From the IMG/VR virus record IMGVR_UViG_3300043446_003656, positions 1 through 60,775 of that record: 60,775 nucleotides of DNA; one strand, 5' to 3'. The notes below the pieces were generated by a model, which ran no database searches, was not told the origin of the DNA, and worked only from the letters and a program-made list of their open reading frames with translations. Below, piece by piece: positions 7,367 through 36,335 of this stretch (position 1 is the first letter of the stretch; each line of letters starts with the position of its first letter). The position numbers and the translations under genes are program-made. Source of the stretch: a virus. Lineage: Duplodnaviria; Caudoviricetes.

Positions 7367-7373
7367 CGAATAA

Positions 7374-7448: not shown

Positions 7449-7451
7449 CTT

Positions 7452-7527: not shown

Positions 7528-7528
7528 T

Positions 7529-7601: not shown

Positions 7602-7605
7602 CTCT

Positions 7606-7676
7606 TCTCTTATGGTGTAATGGCAGCACAGAGGCCTTTGAAGCCTTTAGTTTTAGTTCGAGTCTAGATAAGAGAA
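7606..7676 (+). tRNA. trnQ: tRNA-Gln(TTG)
   Basis: GAGGC-CTTTGAA-GCCTT. Confidence 0.85.
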
Positions 7677-7679
7677 CAG

Positions 7680-7752
7680 GTTCCTATAGCTCAGTTGGTA
7701 GAGCAGCAGACTTTTAATCTGCGGGTCGTTGGTTCGAGACCAACTGGGGACA
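7680..7752 (+). tRNA. trnK: tRNA-Lys(TTT)
   Basis: GCAGA-CTTTTAA-TCTGC. Confidence 0.9.
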
Positions 7753-7753
7753 C

Positions 7754-7835
7754 GCCCGTATGGTGGAATAGGCAGACACAGCAGACTTAAAATTTGCCAT
7801 CGAAAGATATACCAGTTCAAGTCTGGTTACGGGTA
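7754..7835 (+). tRNA. trnL: tRNA-Leu(TAA)
   Basis: GCAGA-CTTAAAA-TTTGC with long variable arm. Confidence 0.9.
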
Positions 7836-7863
7836 CAATGATATAATTGTAGAAGGAGAAAAG

Positions 7864-13457: not shown

Positions 13458-13694
13458 ATGACAAATAACGTAGTAGAATTAAATATAAAAGAAGCACATA
13501 AGTTTGTTGAACAAAATTTTAAAAAAGGTTTTTTTTGGGATGGATGGACAATAGTAAAGTGGTCGCCTGGACATAATGGATATTTAAAAACAAATGGTAT
13601 GTACAGAAATAATAAATGGGGATATGCTAACAAATATTTTTTAACTAATAAGGGGACATGGTTAATTCCAACAAAATATGTCACAAATACTTAA
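13458..13694 (+). CDS. Hypothetical Trp-rich protein
   Basis: ORF track; operon packing. Confidence 0.55.
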   Translation: MTNNVVELNIKEAHKFVEQNFKKGFFWDGWTIVKWSPGHNGYLKTNGMYRNNKWGYANKYFLTNKGTWLIPTKYVTNT

Positions 13695-13998
13695 AGAACT
13701 TGGAATAGATGAAAAAGACATTAAATGGTATCACCTTTCAGCATGTAAAGGTATGTCAATTAATTGGTTTTATGATGATTACGAAAACGATAAAATTCTT
13801 GCATCTACAACTGATCAAGTTTGTTTAAATTGCCCAGTAATTAAACAATGTTATAAAGAAGGTGTGGAAGCAAAAGAATTTGGAGTGCGTGGTGGAATTT
13901 ACATGAATCTTGGTAGAGTTGATAAACAAAATAACGCACACAAAACTAAAGAGACTTGGCTGCAGTTAAAAAAGATACATGGAAAAAATTTTTTATAA
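13678..13998 (+). CDS. whiB: WhiB-family Fe-S transcription factor
   Basis: W..ACKG..WFY..VCLNCPV..C..FGVRGG: four Cys plus a GVxGG turn. Confidence 0.9.
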   Translation: MSQILKELGIDEKDIKWYHLSACKGMSINWFYDDYENDKILASTTDQVCLNCPVIKQCYKEGVEAKEFGVRGGIYMNLGRVDKQNNAHKTKETWLQLKKIHGKNFL

Positions 13999-14933: not shown

Positions 14934-15518
14934 ATGACAACTATTGCAGCAATTCAAGGTAAAAACTGGGTGGTAATGGGTGCGGAAACAAATTCTACAC
15001 ATGATGATTATCGCAGAGTTAAAATGACGGATGATAAAGTTATAAATAACAACGGCATACTTATTGCTGGGTGTGGTACAGGTAGAGGTATGAATTTACT
15101 TCAACACACCTTTAAAGCTCCTAAACCACTTCCAGAAAGAACTCCAGATCAATTAGATAAATGGGTTTCAAATATTTTTATTCCTGAAATGCGTCAATTA
15201 TTCATGGATCATGGATATGACATGAAAGATGAAGGAGATTATGCTCAGCATGATACTGTATTTATAATTGCGGTTCAAGGCATAGTTTATCTTATTGACG
15301 AAGATTATTCTTGGGATAGAGATATAAGAGGTTATATAACATCTGGTTCAGGTGGAGATTTTGCACAAGGTTCATTATATAGAGCATCAAAAAATGGAAA
15401 ATTATTTACAAATATAGCAGAAGCTAAAAAAGAAATGAAATTAGCCATTGAAGCAGCAATTGAATTTGATGTATATTCAGGTGGGGATGTAAGGATATAT
15501 GTTCAACAGCCAGAGTGA
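14934..15518 (+). CDS. Ntn-hydrolase of the HslV/proteasome beta-subunit family
   Basis: N-terminal MTTIAA, GSGG.FA, DVYSGG. Confidence 0.85.
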   Translation: MTTIAAIQGKNWVVMGAETNSTHDDYRRVKMTDDKVINNNGILIAGCGTGRGMNLLQHTFKAPKPLPERTPDQLDKWVSNIFIPEMRQLFMDHGYDMKDEGDYAQHDTVFIIAVQGIVYLIDEDYSWDRDIRGYITSGSGGDFAQGSLYRASKNGKLFTNIAEAKKEMKLAIEAAIEFDVYSGGDVRIYVQQPE

Positions 15519-22078: not shown

Positions 22079-22444
22079 TTATACCACTGCATCTTTGTTT
22101 TTGTCAAGTCGCAATCCATGATAGTCTACAAATTCATCAAAGGAGTGTATCCCAGATTCATCTTCAATATAGTTCTTATCTAGCCAGATAGTAATTGCTG
22201 GGTGGTCTCCAGCCCCGTTGTCTGGACCAGCCCAGAGGCCGTATCCAGTCTCTTCGTTCCAATCAGGTCCGATTAGATTAGAGACAATAATGCGGGCACA
22301 ATATGATTCATCATCCCATCTTGGGCGGGCTTTTTCAAGAGCGTATGCTAAAGCACCATATCTATCTCCACCACCCCAATGACTATATAAACTAATTTGA
22401 TTACCATCAGTTTGAGCCAATGTATATACGATTCTGTCACCCAT
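22079..22444 (-). CDS. Conserved phage hypothetical protein
   Basis: MGDR..SLYSHWGG..ARPRW. Confidence 0.65.
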   Translation of the reverse strand: MGDRIVYTLAQTDGNQISLYSHWGGGDRYGALAYALEKARPRWDDESYCARIIVSNLIGPDWNEETGYGLWAGPDNGAGDHPAITIWLDKNYIEDESGIHSFDEFVDYHGLRLDKNKDAVV

Positions 22445-22638
22445 TACTTTGTTACCTCTATTTCTATAGCATCTGATACTTCATTATATTTGACCCAATT
22501 ATACACGTCATCAACCATACAGTCAATAGCATATTGAGTTAATTCTTCTTCCAGATTATTTGGATCAAATTGAGCCAATAACTCTTCATCCATATCTGCT
22601 GTATCCACATATGTAGATATAATAGCTTTAACTATCAT
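22444..22638 (-). CDS. Hypothetical acidic protein
   Basis: ORF track; coupled stops and starts. Confidence 0.55.
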   Translation of the reverse strand: MIVKAIISTYVDTADMDEELLAQFDPNNLEEELTQYAIDCMVDDVYNWVKYNEVSDAIEIEVTK

Positions 22639-22964
22639 TCCATACCCTCTAATGTAAGTTGCATTTCATCTTGCTCTTCATAGTAATTATTTACAACTGC
22701 AATTAATCTTTCACATAGTTCCACCACTTCACGCATTGTGACTGGTGTGGAATTATAATTACCTAAGTTGGACGTGATGTCTACATAATTTAACAAAAGT
22801 CTAAAGAACTTATGCTGCTCACGTACAGGTAAATGTGATATTTGCATAGCAACAAGTTCCAAGTTAATGTTGTTGTCAGACATAGCATCATAGGTTTGTT
22901 TTACATATTTTTCGTTTGGAGTTTTACCTCCTAGTTTATGAGTGATGGCTACAAATTTTGTCAT
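22635..22964 (-). CDS. Hypothetical protein
   Basis: ORF track. Confidence 0.55.
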   Translation of the reverse strand: MTKFVAITHKLGGKTPNEKYVKQTYDAMSDNNINLELVAMQISHLPVREQHKFFRLLLNYVDITSNLGNYNSTPVTMREVVELCERLIAVVNNYYEEQDEMQLTLEGME

Positions 22965-23087
22965 AAGTTCCCTATTCTATCAGATACGAACGTTTTTGTC
23001 TAACGGTTTCACTATTTGAGACGGAGCTTTTACTCCCCCGTCGCATGCGCAGAATGTCATATGTGATTTACAATCTGCACACATAAC

Positions 23088-23169
23088 AAACCCTACTCTA
23101 ACCCCGCTGCGGTCCAAACCGTACAGTGTACGAGATGGCCGCAATGGGATCTGCGAGGAATAGGGGTTT
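23088..23169 (-). ncRNA. Long GC-rich irregular hairpin
   Basis: Nested pairings CCTATTC/GAGTAGG, GATCCC/GGGGTT, TGCGGCCA/TGGACCGCA, CGTAC/GTACG. Confidence 0.45.
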
Positions 23170-23341
23170 ACGCTAAAGGGACAGCTGTCACCTTAGTGCG
23201 CTGCTTAGGCTCCTTAATTGGACGGTCAAAAGTAAGACCGCTATCCTTAAGAACCTTAATCATCTCAGCCGAAAAACGGCCACGGGCTCCTGGTTGGAAT
23301 CCTTTTGAAATGAGATATGCACGTGCACTTTGCTTTTCCAT
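23168..23341 (-). CDS. Stand-alone Lsr2-like DNA-binding domain (57 aa)
   Basis: Hand translation MEKQSARAYLISKGFQPGARGRFSAEMIKVL..; RGR hook; SD GGAAGG. Confidence 0.65.
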   Translation of the reverse strand: MEKQSARAYLISKGFQPGARGRFSAEMIKVLKDSGLTFDRPIKEPKQRTKVTAVPLA

Positions 23342-23342
23342 G

Positions 23343-23690
23343 TTATTTCCTTCCTTCTAGGTTTTTGGTGTATTCCTCATCGTCAACATCTTCTACGTCA
23401 ACAATGAATCCTTTGTCTTGTAAGTAATCACGAATCTCTTCGTGCATTTGTTCAGGTCCGTATTCTAAATCAAAACGGATATCATTTTCTAAAATAGCAG
23501 ACATAATGTTATCTGGGGTTTCCCTCCATATCCACGACATCGCTTCTATGTCTTCGTAGTCTGACTGGTGCATGTCAATCAAGGTGTCGTAAACCCACAG
23601 GTCCACAAGCCCTGGTCTCCATGGTTGGAGTTCTGAGTACTTAGTTACAAGTACTTGCCCCTCTAAAAGCATTGATAATCTATCAGTCAT
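23343..23690 (-). CDS. Hypothetical acidic protein
   Basis: ORF track. Confidence 0.6.
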   Translation of the reverse strand: MTDRLSMLLEGQVLVTKYSELQPWRPGLVDLWVYDTLIDMHQSDYEDIEAMSWIWRETPDNIMSAILENDIRFDLEYGPEQMHEEIRDYLQDKGFIVDVEDVDDEEYTKNLEGRK

Positions 23691-23910
23691 TATTCTCCCT
23701 ATGCCATTGTGCTAAAGTTCGGACGGTAAAATCTTGACCCAAATTGTAGCAGAAACGGACTGCCTGTGTCAAATCCTCGGTTTCGTAAAGAGGCGGGGAC
23801 AAGAGTTCTACATCAGAGGTATCGTAAACCTCAAATGAATCTACACCACCAGGGGAAACAGAATATTCAACTTCTAGAATTTCTAAAGGTGTTTTATTAT
23901 ACATATTCAT
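23683..23910 (-). CDS. Hypothetical protein
   Basis: ORF track. Confidence 0.55.
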   Translation of the reverse strand: MNMYNKTPLEILEVEYSVSPGGVDSFEVYDTSDVELLSPPLYETEDLTQAVRFCYNLGQDFTVRTLAQWHRENND

Positions 23911-24238
23911 GCAACTCCTTCATATATCTCAAAAGGTGAGATACACCTATCATTTGCCCATTTAAAGATATATCCTCTATCTCTAAAGACTTATATTCAT
24001 CTGAATCCATATCTTCAATCTCATTCATCTGCTTTTCTATATGGGCAGAATCTTGTTCCAGACTGATTATATGTAACTTAGCATACTCTTCTAGTTGTTT
24101 AAACAATCTAAGGTGAATGTCCCACTCTGATTCATAGTCAGGGTCATTGCAACATGGGCATTCATTCTCACATGAAAACATATCTAACTCTTCATTGTAA
24201 TATGTAGAGCACTTACATGTTTCACACATTGATGCCAT
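23897..24238 (-). CDS. Hypothetical protein with Cys-rich N-terminus
   Basis: CETCKC..CENECPCC. Confidence 0.55.
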   Translation of the reverse strand: MASMCETCKCSTYYNEELDMFSCENECPCCNDPDYESEWDIHLRLFKQLEEYAKLHIISLEQDSAHIEKQMNEIEDMDSDEYKSLEIEDISLNGQMIGVSHLLRYMKELHEYV

Positions 24239-24440
24239 TAGTAACCTCCTTAATTAGTTCTTGGTGGAGAATTGTAACATATGGATGACGTTTTATCAAG
24301 CCCGTCATTTTGTCATCATGAGCACAAGTAAGCTCCAGGTTATAGCCATCCAGTTTCTCAACCTCTATACCATGCTTCCATGCATCCATGATCACCGCTC
24401 CATAATTGGAGCGGGACATGGCATCAATGGTTAATATCAT
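24222..24440 (-). CDS. Hypothetical protein
   Basis: ORF track. Confidence 0.55.
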   Translation of the reverse strand: MILTIDAMSRSNYGAVIMDAWKHGIEVEKLDGYNLELTCAHDDKMTGLIKRHPYVTILHQELIKEVTNGINV

Positions 24441-25084
24441 TAGTATGCGCCTTCTTCAACACGTTCAATCTCAAAATTAGTAACAGAGATTTCTCCGCCA
24501 TATGAGTCAACATTTAAGTTATCAGAAACTAATGATTCAATGTCGTAGTCGCCATCAGCCATATCAACTTCAACTGTTAAGTCAACACGAACATAAGCAG
24601 TTACTTCAATTTCCTTAGTTAGTGGAACATCGAAGATTTCTGCAATCTGAGATAAAGTATCTTGTTCCGATGAGTCAGCATAAACTTCTTCTAAAAGTGT
24701 ACGTAGTTGAGATTCCTTGGAATACCAAGCATTTTGTTTTTCAACTAAGTTTTTATAATTGCGACGAGACTGGTCTAGAGCATATTCAATGTCTACAACT
24801 TTATCTGATGGGTAACTTACTTCCCCATTTTCAATCTTTTTGTATGTAACAAGCAGATTAGGGTTGTAGGTCTCTGGTGTCATTGTTTCCATAGTTTCTT
24901 CTTTCTTTTCGGTTATAGGGAGTATTGTAGCATCTGCCACTGACAAAAGTGTGGCGGGGGACCCACAAAGACATGTGAGTTCTGTCACATTAGGAGTATA
25001 TCCAGCTTTCATTGTATATTCAATTAAAGCATCACATTCACCCGTGCAGACATATGTATATTTAGACCAAGTTACTGTCTTCAT
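24440..25084 (-). CDS. Hypothetical protein: N-terminal Zn ribbon fused in frame to a separately promoted ORF starting at 24892
   Basis: CTGEC..CLCG; internal promoter at 24924-24945 and purine-rich SD before METMTPE. Confidence 0.6.
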   Translation of the reverse strand: MKTVTWSKYTYVCTGECDALIEYTMKAGYTPNVTELTCLCGSPATLLSVADATILPITEKKEETMETMTPETYNPNLLVTYKKIENGEVSYPSDKVVDIEYALDQSRRNYKNLVEKQNAWYSKESQLRTLLEEVYADSSEQDTLSQIAEIFDVPLTKEIEVTAYVRVDLTVEVDMADGDYDIESLVSDNLNVDSYGGEISVTNFEIERVEEGAY

Positions 25085-25308
25085 TATAGGTAATATTCAT
25101 CTCCTTCTACATATCCATAATGCTCGTTGTATTGTTTTTTAATTTCAGGAGTAGCCCATTCAAAGAATCTCCATTCAGCATATAGATTTCCTTCATTTAA
25201 ATTAGAACTATTCCATTGATCAAACAGGTGTTCTTCAATATCAACCTGAATAGCACCTAATATATGTTCTCCTACTCTATCTGAGAATAGGTCATCTACA
25301 TCAGCCAT
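25084..25308 (-). CDS. Hypothetical protein
   Basis: ORF track. Confidence 0.55.
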   Translation of the reverse strand: MADVDDLFSDRVGEHILGAIQVDIEEHLFDQWNSSNLNEGNLYAEWRFFEWATPEIKKQYNEHYGYVEGDEYYL

Positions 25309-26080
25309 TTATTTGCTCCATTCTGTAATCAGGGACATGTTCGGAATCCAAATATATCTTATGGGTCTGACATTCTTTGACACAATCAAGGTCTGCCTCG
25401 CCCAAATAATTACAAGATGAGCAAATCTCACCACAATCATTGTCGCAGTATTCTAGTGTATTTAATTCATCACAATCTCTACACTTATTATCATACTCTT
25501 CAATCTCTGTTACATTTCCACGGAGAATCTCATACTCCCCACCCCAACCTGTCTCCTCCTCAAAACTTAAAGTAAGTAAAGAATTAGGAACAAGATTAGA
25601 TAGTTTAGTTAGAACTGTGACAGCAGGAGACCATGCTGTATTATATTTATATACAACCCAGTTATCTTCACCCTCAGATTTATATTCAATTAGTTCTGTT
25701 TCAGGATATTCATCTCCGTCATGAACAGCAACATCCCATTTGGTTCCCCAGTTAGATGTATTCCAGTTATACCAATCGTGTTGAGTTTTAGCAAACTCTA
25801 CTTCCTTAGCAAACCAGTCAGGAGAATTTATGTCAATTCCAAGACGTGCAGGTTGCTTGACATATTCATCCATTGTAATACCGTCCTCTATTGGAGAATG
25901 CACATTCCAAAATGCAAAAACAGGGGCGGAATAAGTAGTCCATGATTGTTCCATTTCACCAGTCTTAGAATTCCAACTATCATGTAATACCTTGAATGGC
26001 TTATTTAATCTATCTTTAATCATATCTATTTCTTGCTTTGGACCTTGAATTGTCAAGGTGTTATATACCCAGTTTGGCAT
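25301..26080 (-). CDS. DUF1281/YubB ferredoxin-like fold protein with C-terminal Cys cluster
   Basis: MPNWVYN.L.I.G..WYNWN..NWGTKWD..NTAWSP. Confidence 0.8.
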   Translation of the reverse strand: MPNWVYNTLTIQGPKQEIDMIKDRLNKPFKVLHDSWNSKTGEMEQSWTTYSAPVFAFWNVHSPIEDGITMDEYVKQPARLGIDINSPDWFAKEVEFAKTQHDWYNWNTSNWGTKWDVAVHDGDEYPETELIEYKSEGEDNWVVYKYNTAWSPAVTVLTKLSNLVPNSLLTLSFEEETGWGGEYEILRGNVTEIEEYDNKCRDCDELNTLEYCDNDCGEICSSCNYLGEADLDCVKECQTHKIYLDSEHVPDYRMEQING

Positions 26081-26094
26081 TATATTCCTTTCGG

Positions 26095-26277
26095 TTAGAG
26101 AGCCCCAATTATAGCATCATACTCTGACACTTTTACTGCTTTACCACCACATGGGCATGTGATATTTATCATATATATAGGTGATACCTCGGAAATATCC
26201 ATAGTATATTCCATAGATGCATCACAGTTTGGACATACATATTCATATACCCACCAGTTACCATTTAAAGTTTGCAT
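26095..26277 (-). CDS. Zn-ribbon protein
   Basis: YVCPNCDASMEYT..TCPCGG, similar to the N-terminus of 24440-25084. Confidence 0.6.
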   Translation of the reverse strand: MQTLNGNWWVYEYVCPNCDASMEYTMDISEVSPIYMINITCPCGGKAVKVSEYDAIIGAL

Positions 26278-26496
26278 TGCGGAATTATAGCATTCGTAAA
26301 GGGATCATGTCAACTCTTCTTAATCGTAAATATGGGACAAATTGGACATTTCTTAATGTTCTTAATGTGATTTTTATCACAGTATCGGCCACACTATTTA
26401 CATTTTTTTAAATGATTATTTAAAGTTTCAAATGCAAATCCACTTCGGACTTGTATCTCAGCTTTACACTTTGGACAAATAACTATTTTCATTTTG

Positions 26497-26570
26497 CGAT
26501 TCGGACGGGACTTGAACCCGCAACCTCCACCGTGACAGGGTGGCGATCTAACCAATTGATCTACCGAACC
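26497..26570 (-). tRNA. trnD: tRNA-Asp(GTC)
   Basis: Reverse complement has CCACC-CTGTCAC-GGTGG and GTTCAAGTC. Confidence 0.9.
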
Positions 26571-26575
26571 AAGTG

Positions 26576-26601
26576 GAGCAGTTTTACATCATGCTCAGGA
26601 T
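26576..26601 (-). ncRNA. Candidate pseudoknot element, copy 2
   Basis: ATC-CTGAGCAT-GAT-GTAAAAC-TGCTC. Confidence 0.55.
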
Positions 26602-26607
26602 TTTTCT

Positions 26608-27639
26608 TTACGCTGTTAGCGCAAGAACTTTTTTCACAATAGAATTTTTTTCTGCTGTGATAACAGGGTCAAAGCCACTAGCGGAATAAATAAGCGATTC
26701 GCCATTTGCTTTTCGTGCTGTGCGATAATAATCTAAACGCTCAGTTAGGGCATTTACTACACCCCACGCTGTGCCTTTGATATTAGCGTTAGTTTCTGAA
26801 TTATGATAAAGGTCATCAAGCAGAACAACTTTGTTTTCCCACTTAGTAAGTGAACCTTTCTTATCATGCTCAGGCTTTGGATATAGCGTGTTGATAATCT
26901 CAGAGAATTTCTTATCTGTGACTTCACGCTGGAATAACAATTCTGCTTGCTTGCTAAATTCATCAAAGTAAGCAACAGATAGATTCAAGGCTTCACGAGC
27001 CTGTGCAATTTTGCCATCAACTGTCTGCGTATGGCGAATCTTGAAAGATTGCTTTGCAGATTTCATAGCAAAGTTAAGAGTATTTTGGCAACGAACACGA
27101 ACAGGCGTGATTGCTGCTTGAACAGCAACAGAACCATCATGGCTAGTATAAACAACTAGATATAGATTGGTTTTGTCGTTAGCACCCTTTGGGTCAAGAA
27201 CGAGAGTAGATGGAACATTCCATGTGCCAAATACAACACGACCATTTTTGAAAGACCCTGCTGAATCAACAGTGACATCAGGATTTGAATCGTGGAGATT
27301 TTCTGCGAAAGCAAATAAATCTTCATTTTGAACTTCTTTGTAGCGTGAACCTACAACAGAAAGAACATCTGTGTTGCCCGCTTCAAACGGATTGTCACGA
27401 ACAACAAGGAAAGATTCGGTTAAGAAATTGTGATTTGGTGCTAACTCAGAAACAGGCTCTAAGCGAACATTCCAATTCGAGAGATGAGCAGAATCCATAA
27501 TTTGTTTAATTGTAGGTTGCTCCTCATCTGTATTCCAAACATGATTAGCAGCAGAGTGCCAAGCAGGATTTGAGCGGGAATCAACAAGGGTGAAAGTCAC
27601 AGATTTATCTGCGATTTCTTTTGCGTGTGCAAGTGTCAT
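26608..27639 (-). CDS. DUF932 / phage-plasmid-like protein (TIGR03299-like)
   Basis: PAWH..VQNE..AGSFKNGRVVF..SHDGS..TPVRVRCQNTL..IRHT..GTAWG..NA..E. Confidence 0.9.
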   Translation of the reverse strand: MTLAHAKEIADKSVTFTLVDSRSNPAWHSAANHVWNTDEEQPTIKQIMDSAHLSNWNVRLEPVSELAPNHNFLTESFLVVRDNPFEAGNTDVLSVVGSRYKEVQNEDLFAFAENLHDSNPDVTVDSAGSFKNGRVVFGTWNVPSTLVLDPKGANDKTNLYLVVYTSHDGSVAVQAAITPVRVRCQNTLNFAMKSAKQSFKIRHTQTVDGKIAQAREALNLSVAYFDEFSKQAELLFQREVTDKKFSEIINTLYPKPEHDKKGSLTKWENKVVLLDDLYHNSETNANIKGTAWGVVNALTERLDYYRTARKANGESLIYSASGFDPVITAEKNSIVKKVLALTA

Positions 27640-27981
27640 TTTTTACCTTTCTTTAGACGAACCCCAAGTATAACAGATTGGTTTAGCATTTGTCAATAGT
27701 ATCTCACTATTTGATACGAAGAGTTTTATAAAATACCCATAAACCCACGCCTAGAATTGCTGGTGTGAGCAAAATCACAAACGGTGCTAAAAGTACAGTT
27801 TCCATAACCCCCTATTTTATCGTAAGTCCATGGGTTTTGTCAAGCTTTCTTAATGTGATGTTAATCACACGGGTCGGCCCGTCTCACAATATGGAATAGC
27901 GTCGTGGGCTACGAATTTAATTCCAGCTATTGCTGCACGATCTTATCGGTTATCACTCCTGGCTATTTATTTAATTGTGTG

Positions 27982-28008
27982 AAGCAGTTTTATAACTTGC
28001 TTAGGTTA
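27982..28008 (-). ncRNA. Candidate pseudoknot element, copy 3
   Basis: TAAC-CTAAGCAA-GTTA-TAAAAC-TGCTT, with a compensatory change in stem 2. Confidence 0.55.
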
Positions 28009-28014
28009 ATTTGT

Positions 28015-28182
28015 TTAGTAAGTTTTTACCATAGCAAAACGAGTTTGATTATTTGCTAGGCGCAACATAACACGAGTTACATTGTTACGAACAGGTGTAA
28101 ATTTTTCAATACGACCTGTTACTCCAGCATTTGATGTTGTGAATAAATCACCGATTTGGTAAGTGTATCCGCCAAGTGTCAT
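28015..28182 (-). CDS. Small SH3-like protein (55 aa)
   Basis: Hand translation MTLGGYTYQIGDLFTTSNAGVTGRIEKF..; SD AGAAAGG. Confidence 0.65.
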   Translation of the reverse strand: MTLGGYTYQIGDLFTTSNAGVTGRIEKFTPVRNNVTRVMLRLANNQTRFAMVKTY

Positions 28183-28218
28183 TTTTATTTTTGCCTTTCT
28201 ATTCGGGTTTAGTTAGGG

Positions 28219-28248
28219 TGAGCAGTTTATTATGACTTGCTCAGGTCA
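28219..28248 (-). ncRNA. Candidate pseudoknot element, copy 4
   Basis: TGAC-CTGAGCAA-GTCA-TAATAAAC-TGCTCA. Confidence 0.55.
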
Positions 28249-28265
28249 GTTTCCCGATTTAGGAA

Positions 28266-28691
28266 TTATAGATAACGAGCAACAGCATTGTAAGTAGAAG
28301 TTGAAACTACTTCCTCATCTGTCATTTTCAGAATACGAATTGCGTTAGACAATTCCTCTTTCATCTCGTTGTATGTGTGTTGATGAAGTTGCTCAAAATC
28401 TCTCTGTGGTTCAACAGGGAAATCTGCTTCATTACAGGTTAGGTCAAAATCTACATTGAGAGTTTTGTTCCATGAGCGATAGTTGGTGCGGAAGTTCTCT
28501 GCTTTTGCTATGTTAGCAACAGCAAACTTACCTACTTCTTTGCGCCACTTCTCAACAGATTTTTGATACTTTGCTTCATTTTCAGATTGGTTTTCCCAAT
28601 CCTTTTCTAACTTAGCAAGGCGAGTTTCAAGTGCCTTGATGATTTTAGGGGTAGCGATTTTTACGCTAATTGCTTTTTGGTTTCTAGCCAT
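28266..28691 (-). CDS. Hypothetical helical protein
   Basis: SD GAAAGGA; own promoter. Confidence 0.65.
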   Translation of the reverse strand: MARNQKAISVKIATPKIIKALETRLAKLEKDWENQSENEAKYQKSVEKWRKEVGKFAVANIAKAENFRTNYRSWNKTLNVDFDLTCNEADFPVEPQRDFEQLHQHTYNEMKEELSNAIRILKMTDEEVVSTSTYNAVARYL

Positions 28692-28776
28692 TTGTTTTGT
28701 TTCCTTTCGGGTTAGGGTTTGAGAGAGTTATTATAGCAGGGGGGTCAGACATTGACCCCCCTGTATTATTATTTAG

Positions 28777-28938
28777 TTATGCCTTGAAAGTAGTCCAGCG
28801 AGTATCGCCATTTACTTCAAGTTTCACACGCACCGAGCCAGATGCGTTCGGAACAATCTCCTTGATAGTTCCTGTGACCTTTGACTTGCTAGTAGTGAAT
28901 AAATCTCCTACTTGATAAGTTTTGCCATTTGCGGTCAT
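28777..28938 (-). CDS. Small SH3-like protein (53 aa), paralog of 28015-28182
   Basis: MTANGKTYQVGDLFTTSKSKVTGTIKEI.. Confidence 0.65.
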   Translation of the reverse strand: MTANGKTYQVGDLFTTSKSKVTGTIKEIVPNASGSVRVKLEVNGDTRWTTFKA

Positions 28939-29155
28939 TTTGCTTCCTTTCTATTTGTTGTTAGGTGGTATTCTAGCATACGAGCCATGTTACTCGCAAG
29001 TAGAAATCGTGTTATTTGGTGTGATTTACATCACATAAATTCGAACGGGTCTCTATCCTCGAAAATAGACTCAAATAGTGCTAAATCTCCTGTCTCCAGG
29101 GCATAGTCTAAATCTAGTGCCATATTTTCTCTGATCCGCTCTGCTTGCTCATCTA

Positions 29156-29467
29156 TCATTCTGCATCACCGATGCAATCTGAACAATCGCAATACCATGC
29201 ATGATTAACCCATGCATCAAGGTGGTGTCCCTCGACAATAGCATTAGCAGGTGCAGAGTCTTGCCCACGCCATGATACGCCTTCGGGTAGTTTAATTAAC
29301 TTATCATAGTCCTCATCATTACATGCTTCAATAGCTTCTATGCAAGGGTCAATCATAGAAAGCGGGACGGGTGGATAGTGATTACTCCTTAATTGTATTG
29401 CAATACTATCACGCAGAGATACATCTAAATCTCCACTTGCTAATTCGGTTGCTAAATTACTTCCCAC
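29156..29467 (-). CDS. Hypothetical protein
   Basis: NHYPPVP..HHLDAW. Confidence 0.6.
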   Translation of the reverse strand: MGSNLATELASGDLDVSLRDSIAIQLRSNHYPPVPLSMIDPCIEAIEACNDEDYDKLIKLPEGVSWRGQDSAPANAIVEGHHLDAWVNHAWYCDCSDCIGDAE

Positions 29468-29666
29468 TTACTTCTCCATTTCTATAAAAATTCATTGTGT
29501 GCATTTTGCCATTAGGTTCAAGTAGATTATAGGTTGCATAGTCTTTGGCATCTCCTACATCTACGCATTTTCTAAACGCATCTACGGCAGATAGCGCATC
29601 TGAAAATCTATAACTAGAGTGATAATTTCCGTCATAGTGTGTAGTTATTACATAGTTGTATTCCAT
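29457..29666 (-). CDS. Hypothetical protein
   Basis: SD GAAAGGA; promoter at 29690. Confidence 0.6.
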   Translation of the reverse strand: MEYNYVITTHYDGNYHSSYRFSDALSAVDAFRKCVDVGDAKDYATYNLLEPNGKMHTMNFYRNGEVSGK

Positions 29667-29733
29667 GATTATCCTTTCGAGAGTAGTTGATTATAGCAGA
29701 GGGGACTGACATTGGTCAAATCCCCTCTGAGCC

Positions 29734-30231
29734 TTACCATGAGGACTGATAATAAAAGGACAAATCCTCAAAATCGGGCAATTCGGTCAATTTGGACAAT
29801 TGCTTGATAGTTGATTTAATTCCATCCCAATAATATTCATCAATATCATATGAACCAAAAAAGAAACCTGCTTGTGGCATTAATTCTTTAGGGTCTTTAT
29901 GGAATAAGGCTTGACGGGCGGTAGTTAAAAGTTCCTTTAACTTATCATGAGATACATAGTATTCACCGCAGTCATCCTCGCCATCTTGTACATTTTGTAC
30001 AAACCAATTATGAACAGAATTAACTTTGCGCCAATAAGCAGCATTTACGCTAACACTTACGCCATAAATATCTTTTTCATCTGCTACATGATCTAAACCA
30101 GCAGCATTTACAATATTATTCCATTGTGGGAAAGTAGCAGCAGCATAGTCTATTTCATCTTGTTTATCAAGAATAGACCAATCTATTTTATTTACATATT
30201 TACGAGCAGAGAGATACATATCTAAACCCAT
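29734..30231 (-). CDS. Conserved phage protein (MGLDMYL..YWRK..YQSSW type)
   Basis: Characteristic terminal motifs. Confidence 0.7.
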   Translation of the reverse strand: MGLDMYLSARKYVNKIDWSILDKQDEIDYAAATFPQWNNIVNAAGLDHVADEKDIYGVSVSVNAAYWRKVNSVHNWFVQNVQDGEDDCGEYYVSHDKLKELLTTARQALFHKDPKELMPQAGFFFGSYDIDEYYWDGIKSTIKQLSKLTELPDFEDLSFYYQSSW

Positions 30232-30235
30232 TTAA

Positions 30236-30514
30236 TTATTCTCCTAACACATCTCTTGAAATTTGGTCAAACATTTCTACTTCCTCGACCATAGCATTAA
30301 ATTGACTTTCGGTCATAAGAATAGAAGTAATGCGAGTTGCAACATTGGCAGTTAAAGTGCCTGAGTATTTGAACATAAGAGAAATTAATTCTTCCTCTGA
30401 TAGATAATTTGCAGTTTTAACAATTTCAGCAGCCATAGTCATAACTTCGAAATCTGTCATGGCTTCTTTGCTTGCTTCTGCAATTGCGTGTGCTTGTGCA
30501 ATTCCACTTAACAT
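30236..30514 (-). CDS. Hypothetical protein
   Basis: SD GAAAGGA; promoter at 30545. Confidence 0.6.
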   Translation of the reverse strand: MLSGIAQAHAIAEASKEAMTDFEVMTMAAEIVKTANYLSEEELISLMFKYSGTLTANVATRITSILMTESQFNAMVEEVEMFDQISRDVLGE

Positions 30515-30707
30515 TGTGGTTTCCTTTCTTTCGGGTGAGGTGCAATTATACTAAATCCCACCGACATTTTCAATTTGACACGCCGTAATTCTCATAATTT
30601 GAGACAAAAATGTGGTGATAAATATCACATTCGTAACGACACGCCCGACTGCGTCGGCCAATGTCCGTTATGTCCAAATTATTTACGCATAAATTAAAGA
30701 ATTATGA

Positions 30708-30736
30708 AAGGGCCTGGTGTCAGATCCAGGCCCCTT
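30708..30736. terminator. GC-rich hairpin, probable terminator
   Basis: GGGCCTGG/CCAGGCCC stem. Confidence 0.6.
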
Positions 30737-30755
30737 CTCTCTCTCACCCGTTACA

Positions 30756-30953
30756 TTAAAAATCTACGGGCACATCTATATTTAAATCCTGGAATGCTAA
30801 CATAGCATAAACCTGAATCTCTTCTTCTGTTGCTTCGGACCAATCTACGTAGTTCATGAAATCCATTTGATTTTGTACACGCAGCGCAATTTCATCTGAA
30901 ACACCAAGCTTGTCAGCAATCATGTATGTAAAAATATTTCCGCCTTTAATCAC
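30756..30953 (-). CDS. Hypothetical protein
   Basis: ORF track. Confidence 0.5.
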   Translation of the reverse strand: MIKGGNIFTYMIADKLGVSDEIALRVQNQMDFMNYVDWSEATEEEIQVYAMLAFQDLNIDVPVDF

Positions 30954-30954
30954 A

Positions 30955-31242
30955 TTACACCGCCAATTCTAAAATTGCACTAGTGCCACCGTGATTAATT
31001 TCTGCTAATTTGCTAATGATATCTGCACGAGACATTGATTTAAGGTCAGAGAAATATTCACGAATGCATGCAACATTCATTTGAGCAAATGTTTCTGCAG
31101 GCACAAGCATTAAACGCATATGGAATTCTGAGCCTTGGCGAATTTTTGAATTAAACTGTACACCGTCAACACTGAATGGATGACAATCCCATTCCGCTGT
31201 AGTAGTATCGGGAGCGATATATTCTGTATTTTTATTTTTCAT
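30955..31242 (-). CDS. Hypothetical protein
   Basis: ORF track; SigA-type promoter upstream. Confidence 0.55.
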   Translation of the reverse strand: MKNKNTEYIAPDTTTAEWDCHPFSVDGVQFNSKIRQGSEFHMRLMLVPAETFAQMNVACIREYFSDLKSMSRADIISKLAEINHGGTSAILELAV

Positions 31243-31481
31243 TTTTTCTTCTTTCGGGTTAGAGTTGGTTAATTATATACTGGTGAGCAGGTCTTTGTCA
31301 AGTTTAGTTACAAGGACCAAACTCATCCCAAGCAAAATATTCATTTTCTTGACCAATGCAATCGCAAGCCAATCTTTCGACATTACCTTGCATGTCAAGA
31401 ATTACGAAACCTGCGCCCTCGCAATCATTACAAGGAACGCCAACGATTTCTGCAATTTCATCAAACGGAGTTTTCATTTTA

Positions 31482-31688
31482 TTATTCTCCTGTGCTAACT
31501 GCTAAAGTTCGCCAAACTTTTTTGATACCATGAGTAGGGCGAATTTCTACGAGATAACTCTCGCAATTCTCACCATACCAAACGGCACGATTATCTTTTT
31601 CCGCATGAGTAATTTCACCCTCTACGGAACGGGAACGATAGAATTTTCCTACAAGTAGGCTTTCAATTGAGTAGATATTTGCTGACAT
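31482..31688 (-). CDS. Small SH3-like protein, paralog of 33990-34187
   Basis: MSANIYSIESLLVGKFYRSRSVEGEI; start lies downstream of the promoter at 31713. Confidence 0.7.
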   Translation of the reverse strand: MSANIYSIESLLVGKFYRSRSVEGEITHAEKDNRAVWYGENCESYLVEIRPTHGIKKVWRTLAVSTGE

Positions 31689-32406
31689 TTTTACCTCTTT
31701 CTTTGTGTCGCTATTATAGCAAACGGGTCTGACATTTTCAAGCGACACGCCGTAGCGTGTCAGTGTGATTTATATCACACTTCGGGGGTTTCGTGATTTG
31801 GATTACAATCACACCATTCAAAATCATAGTCCCCGTCAGGTGAAACCCAACCATTGACTATTCCTGAACCTTTACAATCTGAACAATTTTTATTCATGGA
31901 TACACTCACTTTCTATTTCATGTCCAAACTCATCTACGAGTTCCTCATAAATTTCATCTATATAATCTAAAAAATCTGACATTTAGTTTTCCTTTCTTAT
32001 TTTCTAACTATCGTTAGTTTAGCATAACCCACCGACATTTTTCAACTTACTAGCAAGTAATTTCATATTTTGAGACGCTCAAGTCCTGTGATAAATCTCA
32101 CATTCGTAACGACACGCCCGACTGCGTCGGCCAGTTAGTTGAATATTAAACTATTTAAAAAAAGGCGAAACAAGATCACTAAATATTTTTAGTGATTTGT
32201 TTTTTTTATGTTTTGTTTTACGAGTATATTTCTTTTTATTTTTTTGTGGAGTTGCTGCATTACTGCGACGCAATTCCTGAACTCGTTTTACTTTTTCATT
32301 TGTCATTGTTATACCTCACAATCATGTCCAAAATAAAATTCAGCTGCATCGTTTTCATCAAACATATCAAAACGACGATTACACTCTACGCATTTCTCAA
32401 ACATTT

Positions 32407-32706
32407 TTAGTTTTCCTTTCTAATTTCATGCAAACGAATTACTTTTGCAAACTTTCTAGCACCTACACGGACACGCTCACCCGTGAAACAATTTGTACAA
32501 TACAAACCCTCATGAGCAAATTCGCAAATTTTGCAGGTGCGAATTGTAGGATTATCTAAACGCTTAACTACAATTTCTGAAATAGGTGTAGTCATTAAAC
32601 CTAATTCTAAATCCATGACTAAATCTTTATCAGCGAATTCAATAGGCTGAAATTCTAAATCGTTAATTCTTTTAATTTCTAAATTTGACATTGAAATTAC
32701 TCCCAA
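32407..32706 (-). CDS. Zn-ribbon hypothetical protein
   Basis: CKIC..CTNC. Confidence 0.55.
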   Translation of the reverse strand: MGVISMSNLEIKRINDLEFQPIEFADKDLVMDLELGLMTTPISEIVVKRLDNPTIRTCKICEFAHEGLYCTNCFTGERVRVGARKFAKVIRLHEIRKEN

Positions 32707-32885
32707 CTTCTAGTAGTAGCGAAAACCTTACGATTTGAAGGTTTATAATTTGGAAGGTAAGTTAGATTTACCTCATCTATAATTTGTTTTTGTGAAACTA
32801 AATCTAGGAAAGAGTTAGCGTATTCCTCAGAGGGAACTAGGAGAGTAGTAGAACTACCGCCTACTTTATAATTTAGTGAGAACAT
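32697..32885 (-). CDS. Hypothetical protein
   Basis: SD GAAAGGAG. Confidence 0.55.
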   Translation of the reverse strand: MFSLNYKVGGSSTTLLVPSEEYANSFLDLVSQKQIIDEVNLTYLPNYKPSNRKVFATTRSWE

Positions 32886-33087
32886 TTGGTTCTCCTTTCT
32901 TTTTTATTTATTCTTATTTAATTTTGTATAATGGAATTATAGCATGGGGGTCTGACATTTTTGGGGCGACAAAACGGACATTTGCGACAATTGGGATTGT
33001 GAGTTAGGTCACATTTTATTTTTACGCTCAAAAGTTCAGGTGATTTAGGTCACAATCTTAAAGACACGCCCGACTGCGTCGGTCCAT

Positions 33088-33103
33088 TCGAACATTTGTT
33101 CGA
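33088..33103. promoter_or_regulatory. Actinobacterial LexA (SOS) box
   Basis: TCGAAC-ATTT-GTTCGA, perfect consensus. Confidence 0.7.
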
Positions 33104-33232
33104 GATGGATAGATCAGCTTTTATTCTTCTTCTTTTGGAAAAAATCCATTTTGCTTTATATCTAAATAAAGTTGTTTTGCGCAATAATAACAAACAATAA
33201 ATAAATTTAATTGAATTAGTGAAGTGATTAGT

Positions 33233-33421
33233 CTATTCAGCGTCAAGGTCAAACTCGCTTTCATCAAATTCAATCGCTAAATCTTTTTCATCTACTAAAT
33301 CAAGCGGGATTTCATCTGATTCAGTTTCAGTTTCGATTTCTTCATTTTCCCAATATTCAGGCTCTCTGTCCCATGGGTCATACTTTTTTTCCCAAGAGGG
33401 AACATAACTAGTCATGGTCAT
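33233..33421 (-). CDS. Very acidic small protein
   Basis: ORF track; Asp/Glu-rich. Confidence 0.5.
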   Translation of the reverse strand: MTMTSYVPSWEKKYDPWDREPEYWENEEIETETESDEIPLDLVDEKDLAIEFDESEFDLDAE

Positions 33422-33615
33422 TACTTTACCACACTTTCATTTTTTCCATAAACTGCTTGAATAAATCTATCTTCGTTAAAATTAGGGTTATCATCTGCAA
33501 ACATATCCGCAAAATCAAAAACTAATTCTTTGAAATCTGAAATTTCTACGGGGTAATTTGATAAGTAGCGATTTAGGATTTCCGCTACTGCTACATAGTC
33601 TTTTCGGGTCATCAT
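33421..33615 (-). CDS. Conserved small phage protein (MTRKDY..DNPNF..RF)
   Basis: Motif pattern. Confidence 0.6.
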   Translation of the reverse strand: MMTRKDYVAVAEILNRYLSNYPVEISDFKELVFDFADMFADDNPNFNEDRFIQAVYGKNESVVK

Positions 33616-33989
33616 TTTACTGCACCTCTATTTTCATTATATTAGCAGAAAACTTTACTTTTTCTGCTTGCTTACTTTTATTTAAGTTAGCCACTAGGGT
33701 ATCTATATCGTTAATATTAGTAGCAACATTTCCAACAGATAGCAAACGGCTACCTTGCCATAGGGAGTATTCTATTTTCATTATTTAGTCTCACTTTCTT
33801 TTTTAGTTAATACGGACATAGCCTCTAGGGTAGAAGCCTTACGCTGTGCCTCTACATAGGCACGGAACTCATCTAGGTTCATTTGTTAGTTATCCTTTCT
33901 AAGATACTTACTTATTTATTTGTTATGGCGTTAGCCTACCATAAGCCACCGACAATTTCAAGCGACACGCCGATAGGCGTTAGTGTGAT

Positions 33990-34187
33990 TTAGCCCACAC
34001 TTACGGCTACTGAGCGGTAGGTGTATCCTCCGCCACTTTTACGGATACGGACACGATACGCCTCAGCGTTATCATACCATACGGCGTGAGGGTGCTTTTC
34101 AGCCTCTACGATTTCGCCCTCTACGGAGCGGGAGCGATAAAGCTTACCTACTAGTAAGCCCTCTATTGAATAAAGATTAGCAGACAT
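33990..34187 (-). CDS. Small SH3-like protein
   Basis: MSANLYSIEGLLVGKLYRSRSVEGEI. Confidence 0.7.
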   Translation of the reverse strand: MSANLYSIEGLLVGKLYRSRSVEGEIVEAEKHPHAVWYDNAEAYRVRIRKSGGGYTYRSVAVSVG

Positions 34188-34369
34188 TATTTAGACACTT
34201 TCCAATCTGTCCACATAGGTAGACGCTCAGGGTCAGTATCGTTATACCAACTTTCAATATTATTTTCACAAACCTCGCAGAAAGTGAAACGCTCATCTCC
34301 AACCATAGAGATAGCAGATTTATTAGGGGTGTGTGTCTTACACACTTCGTTAATTGTTAGTGTAGTCAT
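34187..34369 (-). CDS. Small Cys/His protein
   Basis: CKTH..FCEVCE. Confidence 0.55.
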   Translation of the reverse strand: MTTLTINEVCKTHTPNKSAISMVGDERFTFCEVCENNIESWYNDTDPERLPMWTDWKVSK

Positions 34370-34463
34370 TTGAGACCACCTTTCTTTAGTAGTTAATTTT
34401 GTTTTGCTGACCTGATTATTTGCTTACTTATTTAGTAAGGCTCACAGGATTTTTATTTAGTTT

Positions 34464-34697
34464 TTATTTCTTACAATACTTAGCGTATTTTACGAATAAC
34501 TTTCGGTATCCGCAGGTATCGCAGTATCTATTGAAGTAAGGTTGCTTAGTAGCAACACCTTGAACATCTGTCCAAGTAGTATGCTTACAAGTAGGGTCAT
34601 TACCCGCTACATTGTAGTCATTGTAGTAGTAAGGGACATGGCTCCAAAGTTGGTAGCCGTTAGCGATTACTTTATCTAATTTTTTTTCTAGTGACAT
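34464..34697 (-). CDS. Zn-ribbon hypothetical protein, first gene of the minus-strand block
   Basis: CKH..CDTCG; promoter at 34730. Confidence 0.55.
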   Translation of the reverse strand: MSLEKKLDKVIANGYQLWSHVPYYYNDYNVAGNDPTCKHTTWTDVQGVATKQPYFNRYCDTCGYRKLFVKYAKYCKK

Positions 34698-34947
34698 TTT
34701 ATTGTCCTTTCTTTTTATCTAATAAGTAAATACTAGCACACCTCTCTGACATTTTCAAGTCGCAAAACGGACATTTCGGATATTTTTTATGTGATTTAGA
34801 CCACATTTTACGCTCAAAATGCTATCAAATCGGACATTATGGGCACACTATCTTTTTTATTTTTTGATTTTTAAACGTGGATCATACAATTTAAAAAAAT
34901 ATTAACATTTTTGTCAATTTGAAAAGTAAAATGTTATAATAAATTTT

Positions 34948-35751
34948 ATGTATAAAGCTTTGCAAGAATTTCAAGAACCTATCTTGTCTAAACTTAAAAA
35001 ATTAAGTGACGAGGTATATTTGTATGAAAATTTTTTGTCAGAAGAAGAATGTAAAGAAATCGTCGAAGAAGTAAAAAATACGCCAGATTATGTTTATCAA
35101 AAAGAAAAAAATTTAGTTTTAAAAGACTCATTTAATGTATCTAAATTAGCTCAATATAGAGATAGAATTAAAGAAGTATTTAATTTTAATGAAAAAGTAA
35201 AAGAAAAGCATATATCAAACAATTGGACTTTTGTTAGGATGAGACCAACTGGAGTTGGGGATGGTCCACATGTTGATTGGCCAAACTTTTTAAATAAAAT
35301 TAAAATTTCTATTAATGAATCAGAAGATGAAAAAATTAAAATAAAGTTTCAATGGGTAACAATTTTGATTTACTTTAATGATGATTTTGGTGGGGGAGAA
35401 ATAGTATACCCAGAATATGGAATAGAATATCACCCTAAAACAGGAGATTTACTTGTACATAATGCAGAAGTCGTACATACTGTCTATAGAGTTAAATCAG
35501 GAGAAAGATTTTTTTGGCAAGGGGACGTGGCAGCTGATTTTTTTACTGATGAAGATGGAATAAAAATTTATTCAGAAGCAAATGAAAAAATAGGTAATAA
35601 AGATACCGAAGGAGAAGATTTTCTTTTTTCAATAAACCATAGACCGATATTGTCAAAAAGATTGACAAAATGGGCAGAAGATGCAAAATGGAATCCTGAT
35701 GATGAAAGCTTTATAATTAATGGTATAATAAAGAAAACAAGGGAATTATAA
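34948..35751 (+). CDS. 2OG-Fe(II) oxygenase
   Basis: HVD..YFNDDFGGGE..HTV..ERF. Confidence 0.85.
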   Translation: MYKALQEFQEPILSKLKKLSDEVYLYENFLSEEECKEIVEEVKNTPDYVYQKEKNLVLKDSFNVSKLAQYRDRIKEVFNFNEKVKEKHISNNWTFVRMRPTGVGDGPHVDWPNFLNKIKISINESEDEKIKIKFQWVTILIYFNDDFGGGEIVYPEYGIEYHPKTGDLLVHNAEVVHTVYRVKSGERFFWQGDVAADFFTDEDGIKIYSEANEKIGNKDTEGEDFLFSINHRPILSKRLTKWAEDAKWNPDDESFIINGIIKKTREL

Positions 35752-36335
35752 TGGGACCTTTTATAAACAGTCAAGAAGTACTAGAGCTTGGCGAAGATAT
35801 ATATATAATAGAAAATTTTTTAACTCAAGAAGAATGTCAATATTTTAAAGATTTATTTGATAAAGGTATTGAGGCAAATGGGCATAATCTAGAACTTGGT
35901 TTTGGTGTTGTTTCTAATAATTTTGAAGAAATTGAAAAAATTAGAGATAGAATTAAATCAATTATTGATCCAGTTTATGAACTTGGACACAATACAGCTG
36001 TGAATTTAATGAAAGTTGGAAATTCATGGGGACTACACTACGATGCTCAACAATTTGAAAAAATAAGAGGCAAGGCAAATCAAAAAGATCCTCTTGATGA
36101 ATATGATTTAGTTAAAGATAGTAAATACGGGACTGTGCTTTATTTTAACGAATTTGGTGGTGGGGCTTTAAATTATCCTTTGCAAAATATACAGTATAAG
36201 CCAATGCCTGGAACCTTAGTGGTTCATAGTTCAGAAAAAATATGTAGCCATGAAGTATTAGAGGTTACAGAAGGATACAGATATTCTTACTCTAATCATT
36301 TATCAATACCAATTTTAATACCTAGGAACTTATGA
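35751..36335 (+). CDS. 2OG-Fe(II) oxygenase
   Basis: HYD..YFNEFGGG..HEV..RY. Confidence 0.85.
   Translation: MGPFINSQEVLELGEDIYIIENFLTQEECQYFKDLFDKGIEANGHNLELGFGVVSNNFEEIEKIRDRIKSIIDPVYELGHNTAVNLMKVGNSWGLHYDAQQFEKIRGKANQKDPLDEYDLVKDSKYGTVLYFNEFGGGALNYPLQNIQYKPMPGTLVVHSSEKICSHEVLEVTEGYRYSYSNHLSIPILIPRNL

Follow-up and report, generated by a model that had tools for sequence, protein, structure and literature searches.

What drives the long run of small genes on the minus strand of IMGVR_UViG_3300043446_003656, and which factor reads their promoters? The window discussed here is the whole of this IMG/VR viral record (60,775 bp, linear), whose open reading frames (ORFs) run off both ends and whose completeness is put at about 56% by CheckV. 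It was found in aquatic sequencing runs, has a GC content of 34.6% overall (29-42% per 2-kb window), and represents part of an uncultured siphovirus-like actinophage from an aquatic habitat, whose full genome would measure roughly 100-110 kb. Within it, one promoter design recurs before the small genes: the hexamer TGTC(A/G/T)G, a gap of 10 nt, then TANNNT. An initial annotation took nine such elements for promoters of the actinobacterial PafBC/RecA-NDp class, which would tie the genes to the DNA-damage alarm of the host or to a WYL-domain factor of the phage's own. From the comparison of phage and host sequences, we think it probable that the block is driven via the host's PafBC, which would read these PafBC-type boxes and switch the block on, or boost it, along with the host alarm regulon.

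The block and its candidate promoters, by position in the window, are as follows.

22079..34751, minus strand: block of small ORFs, about 35 in number and all read in one direction, with ORFans making up nearly the whole (from ORF lists; Pfam and PHROGs mostly blank)
34730..34751, minus strand: promoter TGTCAGAGAGGTGTGCTAGTAT; TTGAAA 17 bp 5' of the -10; Shine-Dalgarno (SD) sequence and ATG 32 nt on, ORF 34697-34464 (77 amino acids)
33933..33954, minus strand: promoter TGTCGGTGGCTTATGGTAGGCT; TTGAAA at 17 bp; ATG 50 nt on, ORF 33882-33781 (33 amino acids), then more small ORFs
32936..32957, minus strand: promoter TGTCAGACCCCCATGCTATAAT; without a -35 (best 2/6); ATG 50 nt on, ORF 32885-32697 (62 amino acids)
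32016..32037, minus strand: promoter TGTCGGTGGGTTATGCTAAACT; TTGAAA at 18 bp; ATG 33 nt on, ORF 31982-31890 (30 amino acids)
31713..31734, minus strand: promoter TGTCAGACCCGTTTGCTATAAT; TTGAAA at 17 bp; ATG 24 nt on, ORF 31688-31482 (68 amino acids)
30545..30566, minus strand: promoter TGTCGGTGGGATTTAGTATAAT; TTGAAA at 17 bp, without the TG; ATG 30 nt on, ORF 30514-30236 (92 amino acids)
29690..29711, minus strand: promoter TGTCAGTCCCCTCTGCTATAAT; TTGACC at 18 bp; ATG 23 nt on, ORF 29666-29457 (69 amino acids)
28730..28751, minus strand: promoter TGTCTGACCCCCCTGCTATAAT; without a -35 (3/6); ATG 38 nt on, ORF 28691-28266 (141 amino acids)
26108..26129, minus strand: promoter TGTCAGAGTATGATGCTATAAT, a good site with an extended -10; ATG 27 nt on, ORF 26080-25301 (259 amino acids)
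25351..25372, minus strand: weaker candidate TGTCAGACCCATAAGATATATT, without an extended -10; ATG 42 nt on, ORF 25308-25084 (74 amino acids)
24924..24945, minus strand: promoter TGTCAGTGGCAGATGCTACAAT; ATG 40 nt on, ORF 24883-24440 (147 amino acids)

All nine elements of the initial annotation (24924, 28730, 29690, 30545, 31713, 32016, 32936, 33933, and 34730) are where it placed them, and each does precede an SD sequence and an ORF, with the ATG after 23-50 nt and ORFs of 30-147 amino acids. Its list was incomplete, having passed over three further matches in the block: the good site at 26108, the weaker one at 25351, which overlaps the 3' end of the 259-amino-acid ORF, and one at 22861 (minus strand), which lies within an ORF, has a poor -10, and is probably chance. 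At ten block sites an SD-like GAAAGGA or AAGG and an ATG lie 23-50 nt downstream. Promoters with this element span 24924-34751; in the distal part of the block (22.1-24.3 kb) their place is taken by candidates of the form TTGACA/TTGATA-N17/18-TAyAAT.

How often should such a pattern arise by accident? TGTCDG-N10-TANNNT matches 14 times in the window, whereas 100 dinucleotide shuffles of the same sequence averaged 1.72 matches, peaked at 6, and in no case reached 14. Thirteen of the 14 matches are on the minus strand and 12 of these fall within 22861-34751; the matches at 7096 (minus strand) and 39140 (plus strand) look like chance. The spacing, which had been called invariant, is indeed singular: on the minus strand a gap of 10 nt gives 13 matches, whereas no other gap from 4 to 17 nt gives more than three. 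The claim that plus-strand genes use other promoters also held, since a promoter scan found the element on none of 14 plus-strand candidates versus 7 of 16 on the minus strand. The plus-strand candidates are of two kinds, with either an extended -10 (often aTGATATAAT) or TTGACA-N17/18-TATAAT. The former appears as a second promoter class at plus-strand positions 1238, 7842, 19167, 40063, and 43143, where an extended -10, with aTGATATAAT as its recurring form, stands without a -35 or an upstream element.

Is the design peculiar to this one fragment? The gene used to find relatives lies inside the block, and its nearest upstream promoter is the one at 28730.

26608..27639, minus strand: DUF932 protein of 343 amino acids (Pfam PF06067, E=1.3e-52), the anchor for fetching 35 related loci

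These 35 loci come from viral contigs, many of them 97-112 kb long, and 30 of them carry 5-19 motif matches on the gene strand, the anchor-protein identity in motif-bearing phages reaching down to 62%. Across the family there are 332 gene-strand matches versus 8 on the opposite strand, and the 10-nt gap accounts for those 332 while every other spacing yields at most 83. The four most distant loci (anchor identity 30-52%, GC 40-50%) have none or one. Three of the relatives are complete and have terminal repeats; in each, the motif is limited to one block of 10-13 kb and to one orientation, the block holding 19 of 22 matches in the first (G001, with two more at the other end), 9 of 16 in the second (G002), and 19 of 20 in the third (G005).

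The association can also be recovered from the -10 alone. Given only TG.TA.AAT, TGTC is found at offset 16 in 190 of 392 gene-strand sites and almost nowhere else. The family logo, built from 300 unique sites, reads aaTGTC-A(76%)-G-T(74%)-S-S...T(86%)G(90%)cTAtAAT, which lengthens the match to TGTCAGTGG. The older RecA-NDp consensus has GTG after the hexamer. A scan of viral collections with the extended pattern returned at least 164 loci, at least 12 of which had two or more matches within 600 bp, and 17 contigs had 2-7 matches among the 80 matches listed; a control pattern with an 11-nt gap returned 120 loci, none with two matches.

One position of the box varies in an orderly way. Position 5 is nearly uniform within a phage, being G at 9 of 9 sites in one relative (L006) and 6 of 6 in another (L002), and A throughout in most others. 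Orthologous promoters of sister phages differ only at this position, for example TGTCGGTGGTAGATGCTACAAT versus TGTCAGTGGTAGATGCTACAAT. A difference confined to position 5, together with uniformity within each phage, argues that selection or conversion acts on the element itself. The pattern fits a trans-acting reader with a host-dependent preference; gene conversion is the alternative.

How does this compare with what is known of PafBC? The published motif is tGTCgg(N10)tA(N3)T, its 5' part lying at -23 to -28 and called the '-26 element' (PMC8635444). According to the same paper, the GTC triplet does not vary across actinobacteria and is read by residues R46 and R50 of PafB, PafBC inserts between the DNA and domain 4 of sigma-A, and mycobacterial PafBC promoters are described as lacking a -35 consensus. 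Single-stranded DNA (ssDNA) triggers strictly PafBC-dependent transcription in vitro (PMC11804915), and RecA-NDp promoters precede damage-response genes in Actinomycetales (PMC5087735). PafBC/RecA-NDp promoters of the recA P1 type (PMC8635444; PMC11804915) share with the phage sites a 22-nt architecture of TGTC(A/G)G, 10 nt, and TAnnnT. The phage geometry is thus identical to the published one, as the initial annotation had proposed: every site has the invariant GTC within TGTC(A/G/T)G, and the element lies at -28 to -23, a fixed 10 nt from a sigma-A -10. The phage promoters differ from their bacterial counterparts in number and setting, with 10-20 per genome in a single block before ORFan genes rather than repair genes, and in having mostly A, not G, at position 5.

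If a host factor reads the boxes, what is the host? The window encodes an actinobacterial marker.

13678..13998, plus strand: WhiB-family protein (Pfam PF02467, 32.8 bits against a cut-off of 23.6; PHROG WhiB, 3.3e-12)

This family is present in all five phage records searched, while among 14 control genomes it occurs only in Corynebacterium glutamicum; whiB is used as an actinophage marker (PMC10914622). WhiB in every phage record points to an actinobacterial host, probably a streamlined one of low GC. We had at first entertained a Firmicutes-type host on the strength of the low GC, with plain TTGAAA-N17-TATAAT promoters, and dropped the idea after the WhiB result and the recA comparison described below. 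Mycobacterium smegmatis, the frame used by the initial annotation, is the wrong host because the contig is aquatic and 35% GC.

The sample of possible hosts was centred on the genome of a metagenome-assembled genome (MAG) labelled Aquiluna and comprised 251 genomes of its class, six of them flagged as unpublished; none of the individual claims made here depends on those six. WYL domains occur in 250 of the 251. In all five small genomes examined (1.3-1.4 Mb) there is an adjacent pair of WYL-domain genes encoding about 310-340 amino acids each. In one of them (G090) the pair consists of a PafB-like protein (WYL and WCX) and a PafC-like protein (HTH_PafC, WYL, and WCX), followed by tatC. Aligned over its full length with the solved M. 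smegmatis chains 7p5x/9fnd (E~3e-32), the PafB-like protein has R46 and R50 conserved.

The recA loci of the same five genomes each contain exactly one motif match, 61-200 nt 5' of recA. Four of the five promoters read TTGTCAGTGGC...TA(N3)T, three of them with the extended -10 TGCTA, and the fifth is TGTCGGAGGC. Within the window, the site at 24924 is the closest match to these recA promoters. For a search in the other direction we used a consensus derived from phage sites only, TGTCAGTGG-N4-TGNTA-N3-T. With at most one mismatch it found 16 sites in six genomes, versus 3 for the reversed control, and the only three perfect matches in these six are the recA promoters of G090, G132, and G170. 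Across the 251 genomes, perfect matches occur in 10 genomes (11 sites), versus none for the reversed control, and in 6 of 14 genomes of up to 1.5 Mb versus 4 of 237 larger ones. These counts point to streamlined, small-genome actinobacteria as the best-fitting host. In both genomes examined for it, extended-form sites precede carD and the gene of a small LysM protein; further such sites in these two genomes precede genes for a trypsin-like peptidase and a C5 methylase. In mycobacteria, RecA-NDp targets include the LysM protein ChiZ.

The candidate lineages have pafB-pafC, an outcome relevant to the proviso that phage and host lineage might both lack PafBC/WYL proteins. The suggestion that the phage brings a WYL factor of its own, encoded outside the window, found no support: a six-frame search with PF13280 detected no WYL domain in the window, nor in any of five relatives that are 99-100% complete.

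With these pieces in hand, a mechanism can be proposed. The roughly ten block promoters each consist of a sigma-A -10, mostly in the extended form TGnTAtAAT, with TGTC(A/G)G exactly 10 nt upstream at -28 to -23. PafBC, a heterodimeric WYL activator, would act on them by 'sigma adaptation', the helix-turn-helix (HTH) of PafB reading the GTC and that of PafC holding domain 4 of sigma-A. We infer that host PafBC, activated by ssDNA arising on infection, binds the phage boxes and recruits RNA polymerase (RNAP) with sigma-A, so that the block would come on, or be boosted, together with the host alarm regulon. PafBC would be a booster and not an absolute requirement, as basal activity independent of it is to be expected from a consensus extended -10 combined with a -35-like hexamer at about a third of sites.

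A number of observations weigh against this reading and should be considered together. Six of 12 block sites have, 17-18 bp 5' of the -10, a hexamer agreeing with TTGACA at five of six positions (TTGAAA in five cases, TTGACC in one), a feature that the initial annotation passed over; at this distance the TGTC starts 1-2 nt after the hexamer. In the family, 30.7% of 293 sites match TTGACA at five or more of six positions at 16-18 bp, versus 1.9% of control positions; at 54% of the same 293 sites the match is 3/6 or less. Mycobacterial PafBC promoters, which lack a -35 consensus, differ from the phage family, where the -35-like hexamer occurs at about 31% of sites and a near-consensus extended -10 at nearly all. 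PafBC-type sites of the candidate hosts have weak -10s (TACCTT, TAGAAT, TATGGT), unlike the near-consensus of the phage. The phage promoters may thus be strong without any activator. Four of the five recA promoters are near-identical and come from closely related genomes, and so are not independent. The loose pattern shows no genome-wide enrichment in two candidate hosts (15 and 13 matches versus 16 and 15 for the control). The two candidate host genomes sampled for GC content have 46.5-49%, versus 35% for the phage. An attempt to reach the host through homologues of the phage ribonucleotide reductase (RNR) yielded no host signal, since the 13 loci concerned (L036-L048) were most likely phage contigs mis-binned in MAGs. 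The labels of those MAGs included Saccharibacteria, Brevundimonas, Bacteroidia, a cyanobacterium, Aquiluna, Methanobacteriota, and others. One candidate host genome (G203) uses both A and G at position 5; as both are tolerated there, uniformity within a phage need not reflect the specificity of PafB. A cultured phage of similar layout, Jay2Jay, has no such promoters in its first 50 kb, as set out below.

Even so, the tests able to refute the core PafBC-type reading failed to refute it. For the wiring of the block to the host alarm, geometry, WhiB, and the pafB-pafC genes and recA promoters of candidate lineages speak in favour; dependence on PafBC may be partial, given the near-consensus extended -10 and the -35-like hexamers at about 31% of sites.

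What else might explain the boxes? One alternative is a phage-encoded activator outside the WYL family, similar to MotA/AsiA, that reads TGTCAG where a -35 would otherwise stand. Under this model the block would belong to a middle class turned on by an earlier phage product, and the likeness to PafBC boxes would be either convergence or competitive mimicry. The box does lie where activators replacing the sigma-4/-35 contacts act, and PMC8635444 itself compares PafBC with T4 AsiA/MotA. Most phage proteins are without assignable function, leaving room for a DNA-binding factor, and a near-uniform A or G per phage would agree with a reader that is particular to each phage and co-evolves with the boxes. 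We nevertheless regard such an activator as unlikely. Candidate hosts have the same box, flanks (TGTCAGTGGC), and exact spacing in their recA promoter, which would have to be coincidence, and the five phage records yielded neither HTH_PafC, WYL, nor sigma70_r2 domains and a single, sub-threshold match to HTH_11 (16.4 bits). No MotA- or AsiA-type Pfam match was found among the window's 104 ORFs.

Little credence, in our view, is due to the idea that these are ordinary strong sigma-A promoters in which TGTCAG is either spacer kept by duplication and gene conversion, or an operator at which a repressor silences the block. Duplication alone leaves the identity with host recA promoters unexplained, and TGTC is fixed at one offset while flanks and spacer vary across the 300 unique sites. 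A near-consensus TGnTAtAAT should nonetheless suffice for sigma-A, the more so with the -35-like hexamer at about 31% of sites, and plus-strand genes of the same phage manage with extended -10 promoters that have no box. Spacer families such as ACCCCCC recur among the family sites, as duplication would lead one to expect, and uniformity at position 5 within a phage fits gene conversion. Operators, for their part, are usually palindromic, and GTCWGAC occurs at a minority of sites. That the boxes are mainly a sink, drawing host PafBC and RNAP away from genes for repair and defence and affecting the block's transcription only secondarily, seems to us highly improbable. Their density is suggestive, at about one box per kb of block versus a handful per 1.4-Mb host genome, and the 10-20 strong boxes of each phage genome would be multiplied by replication. 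Every box is, however, correctly placed before a -10, an SD sequence, and an ORF, and strictly co-oriented with the genes, which argues that transcription is the selected function.

A bolder form of the host-PafBC reading deserves mention, and we hold it tentatively, as doubtful in its entirety. Here the phage family would have handed an early, host-directed block to PafBC; the infecting DNA would itself trip the sensor, position 5 would track the PafB of the host, and the boxes would act as a sink as well. If this were true, the promoter boxes would be a determinant of host range, and their number would be a sink blunting the damage and defence regulon of the host. We infer the 'early' or 'takeover' role of the block genes solely from the abundance of small ORFans among them.

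It is instructive to set the phage promoters beside other named systems. The middle promoters of T4 likewise serve a phage gene class and combine a sigma-70-type -10 with an activator box that replaces or overrides the -35 contact. T4 supplies its own activator and co-activator, whereas here the phage records searched yielded no candidate factor and the box is one that the host itself uses. DriD of Caulobacter and other WYL activators of SOS-independent damage responses are also described as sensing ssDNA and acting at fixed promoter positions; DriD is a homodimer with its own palindromic site, and the box and spacing of the phage are those of PafBC, not of DriD.

Among cultured phages, a megablast search with window positions 24000-35000 gave no match. 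A comparison is offered by Streptomyces phage Jay2Jay and its relatives (Stanwilliamsviridae, about 130 kb), whose RNR is 67% identical to that of the window. The layout is alike: small ORFs, among them an Lsr2-like gene, form a block on the minus strand, and genes for the glycosyltransferase, RNR, and structural proteins come after it. In Jay2Jay (NC_029098.1, 1-50000 of 133.5 kb) there is one chance-like motif match, versus three for the reversed control, and no cluster. The same layout without the box makes the feature specific, within the phages examined, to the aquatic low-GC clade. Nearly every small minus-strand gene of Jay2Jay has an intergenic gap of about 100 nt before it, a trait of the shared layout.

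To our knowledge, PafBC and sigma adaptation have so far been described solely in the damage response of bacteria. The class of promoter is not new, but the literature searched contains no report of phage promoters belonging to it, nor of a phage that relies on it wholesale. PMC12848934 cites a 2025 paper linking pafBC to mycobacteriophage resistance. If the reading is correct, this would be the first virus using the PafBC/sigma-adaptation route and a host-supplied counterpart of T4 MotA/AsiA, with sigma adaptation sending the housekeeping RNAP of the host to 10-20 phage promoters in aquatic actinophages of about 100-115 kb, and with phage gene timing tied to an ssDNA sensor and not to LexA/RecA. 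The box also offers a sequence-based means of linking uncultured aquatic phages with actinobacterial hosts. Several boxes (TGTCGGTGG...) fit the mycobacterial consensus, so the idea is testable with existing M. smegmatis reagents.

Some further features of the promoter regions may be recorded. Words recur about 40-60 nt 5' of the minus-strand promoters 31713, 33933, 34730, 24924, and 26108, for example AAATCACA, which at 31713 carries a GTGTGAT...ATCACAC palindrome; ACGGCGTGTC recurs upstream of 30545, 31713, and 33933. Such words, neither of which is conserved in the phage-family logo, may terminate the unit before them or serve as a second operator. Hairpins overlapping the promoter, seen at 28730 and 29690, were rejected as a general feature, being present at 4.0% of 247 sites versus 2.3% of control positions.

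On the host side, a stretch of 45.7% GC in one candidate host genome (G132, locus L353, C1:440500-452500) contains four PafBC-type promoters, all on one strand and within 6.5 kb of each other. They stand before genes for a trypsin-like peptidase and two unknown proteins and before a TPR-subtilase-DSPc phosphatase operon. This cluster may be a damage- or phage-induced island, and G090 has a similar promoter cluster at about 450-475 kb.

As for transcripts, 6-15% of the window's words are present in four aquatic metatranscriptome runs from one study, where the contigs are short, cover the DUF932 gene best, and cannot show starts, strand, or transcription.

The remaining gene content of the window was surveyed by searching its 104 ORFs against Pfam. 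In the small-ORF block (minus strand, 22079-34697), the only family assignments from Pfam and PHROGs are DUF932 and a weak Lsr2-like match, the latter to a small protein at 23168-23341. Elsewhere there are matches to DUF7455, DUF6378, Hsp20, Cpn10, thioredoxin, AhpC, a DenV-type glycosylase, a class II RNR, and a glycosyltransferase. Domain matches also include a GmrSD C-terminal-type nuclease (560-1213), a subtilase (10496-11407), and a proteasome-subunit-like protein (14934-15518).

Ten tRNA genes lie at 5907-7836 and 26496-26570, nine of them clustered, and the tRNA-Asp sits within the minus-strand small-ORF block. They are mostly for A/T-ending codons (Ile-TAT, Thr-TGT, Arg-TCT, Gln-TTG, Lys-TTT, and Leu-TAA), which fits a phage more AT-rich than its host. 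Lastly, the window contains more than ten paralogous genes of the 2OG-Fe(II) oxygenase type (4544-8433, 35751-36335, and 55157-60775; Pfam), an unusual expansion for a phage, alongside two DUF6065 genes, one Asp/Arg hydroxylase-like gene, and one sulfotransferase-like gene.

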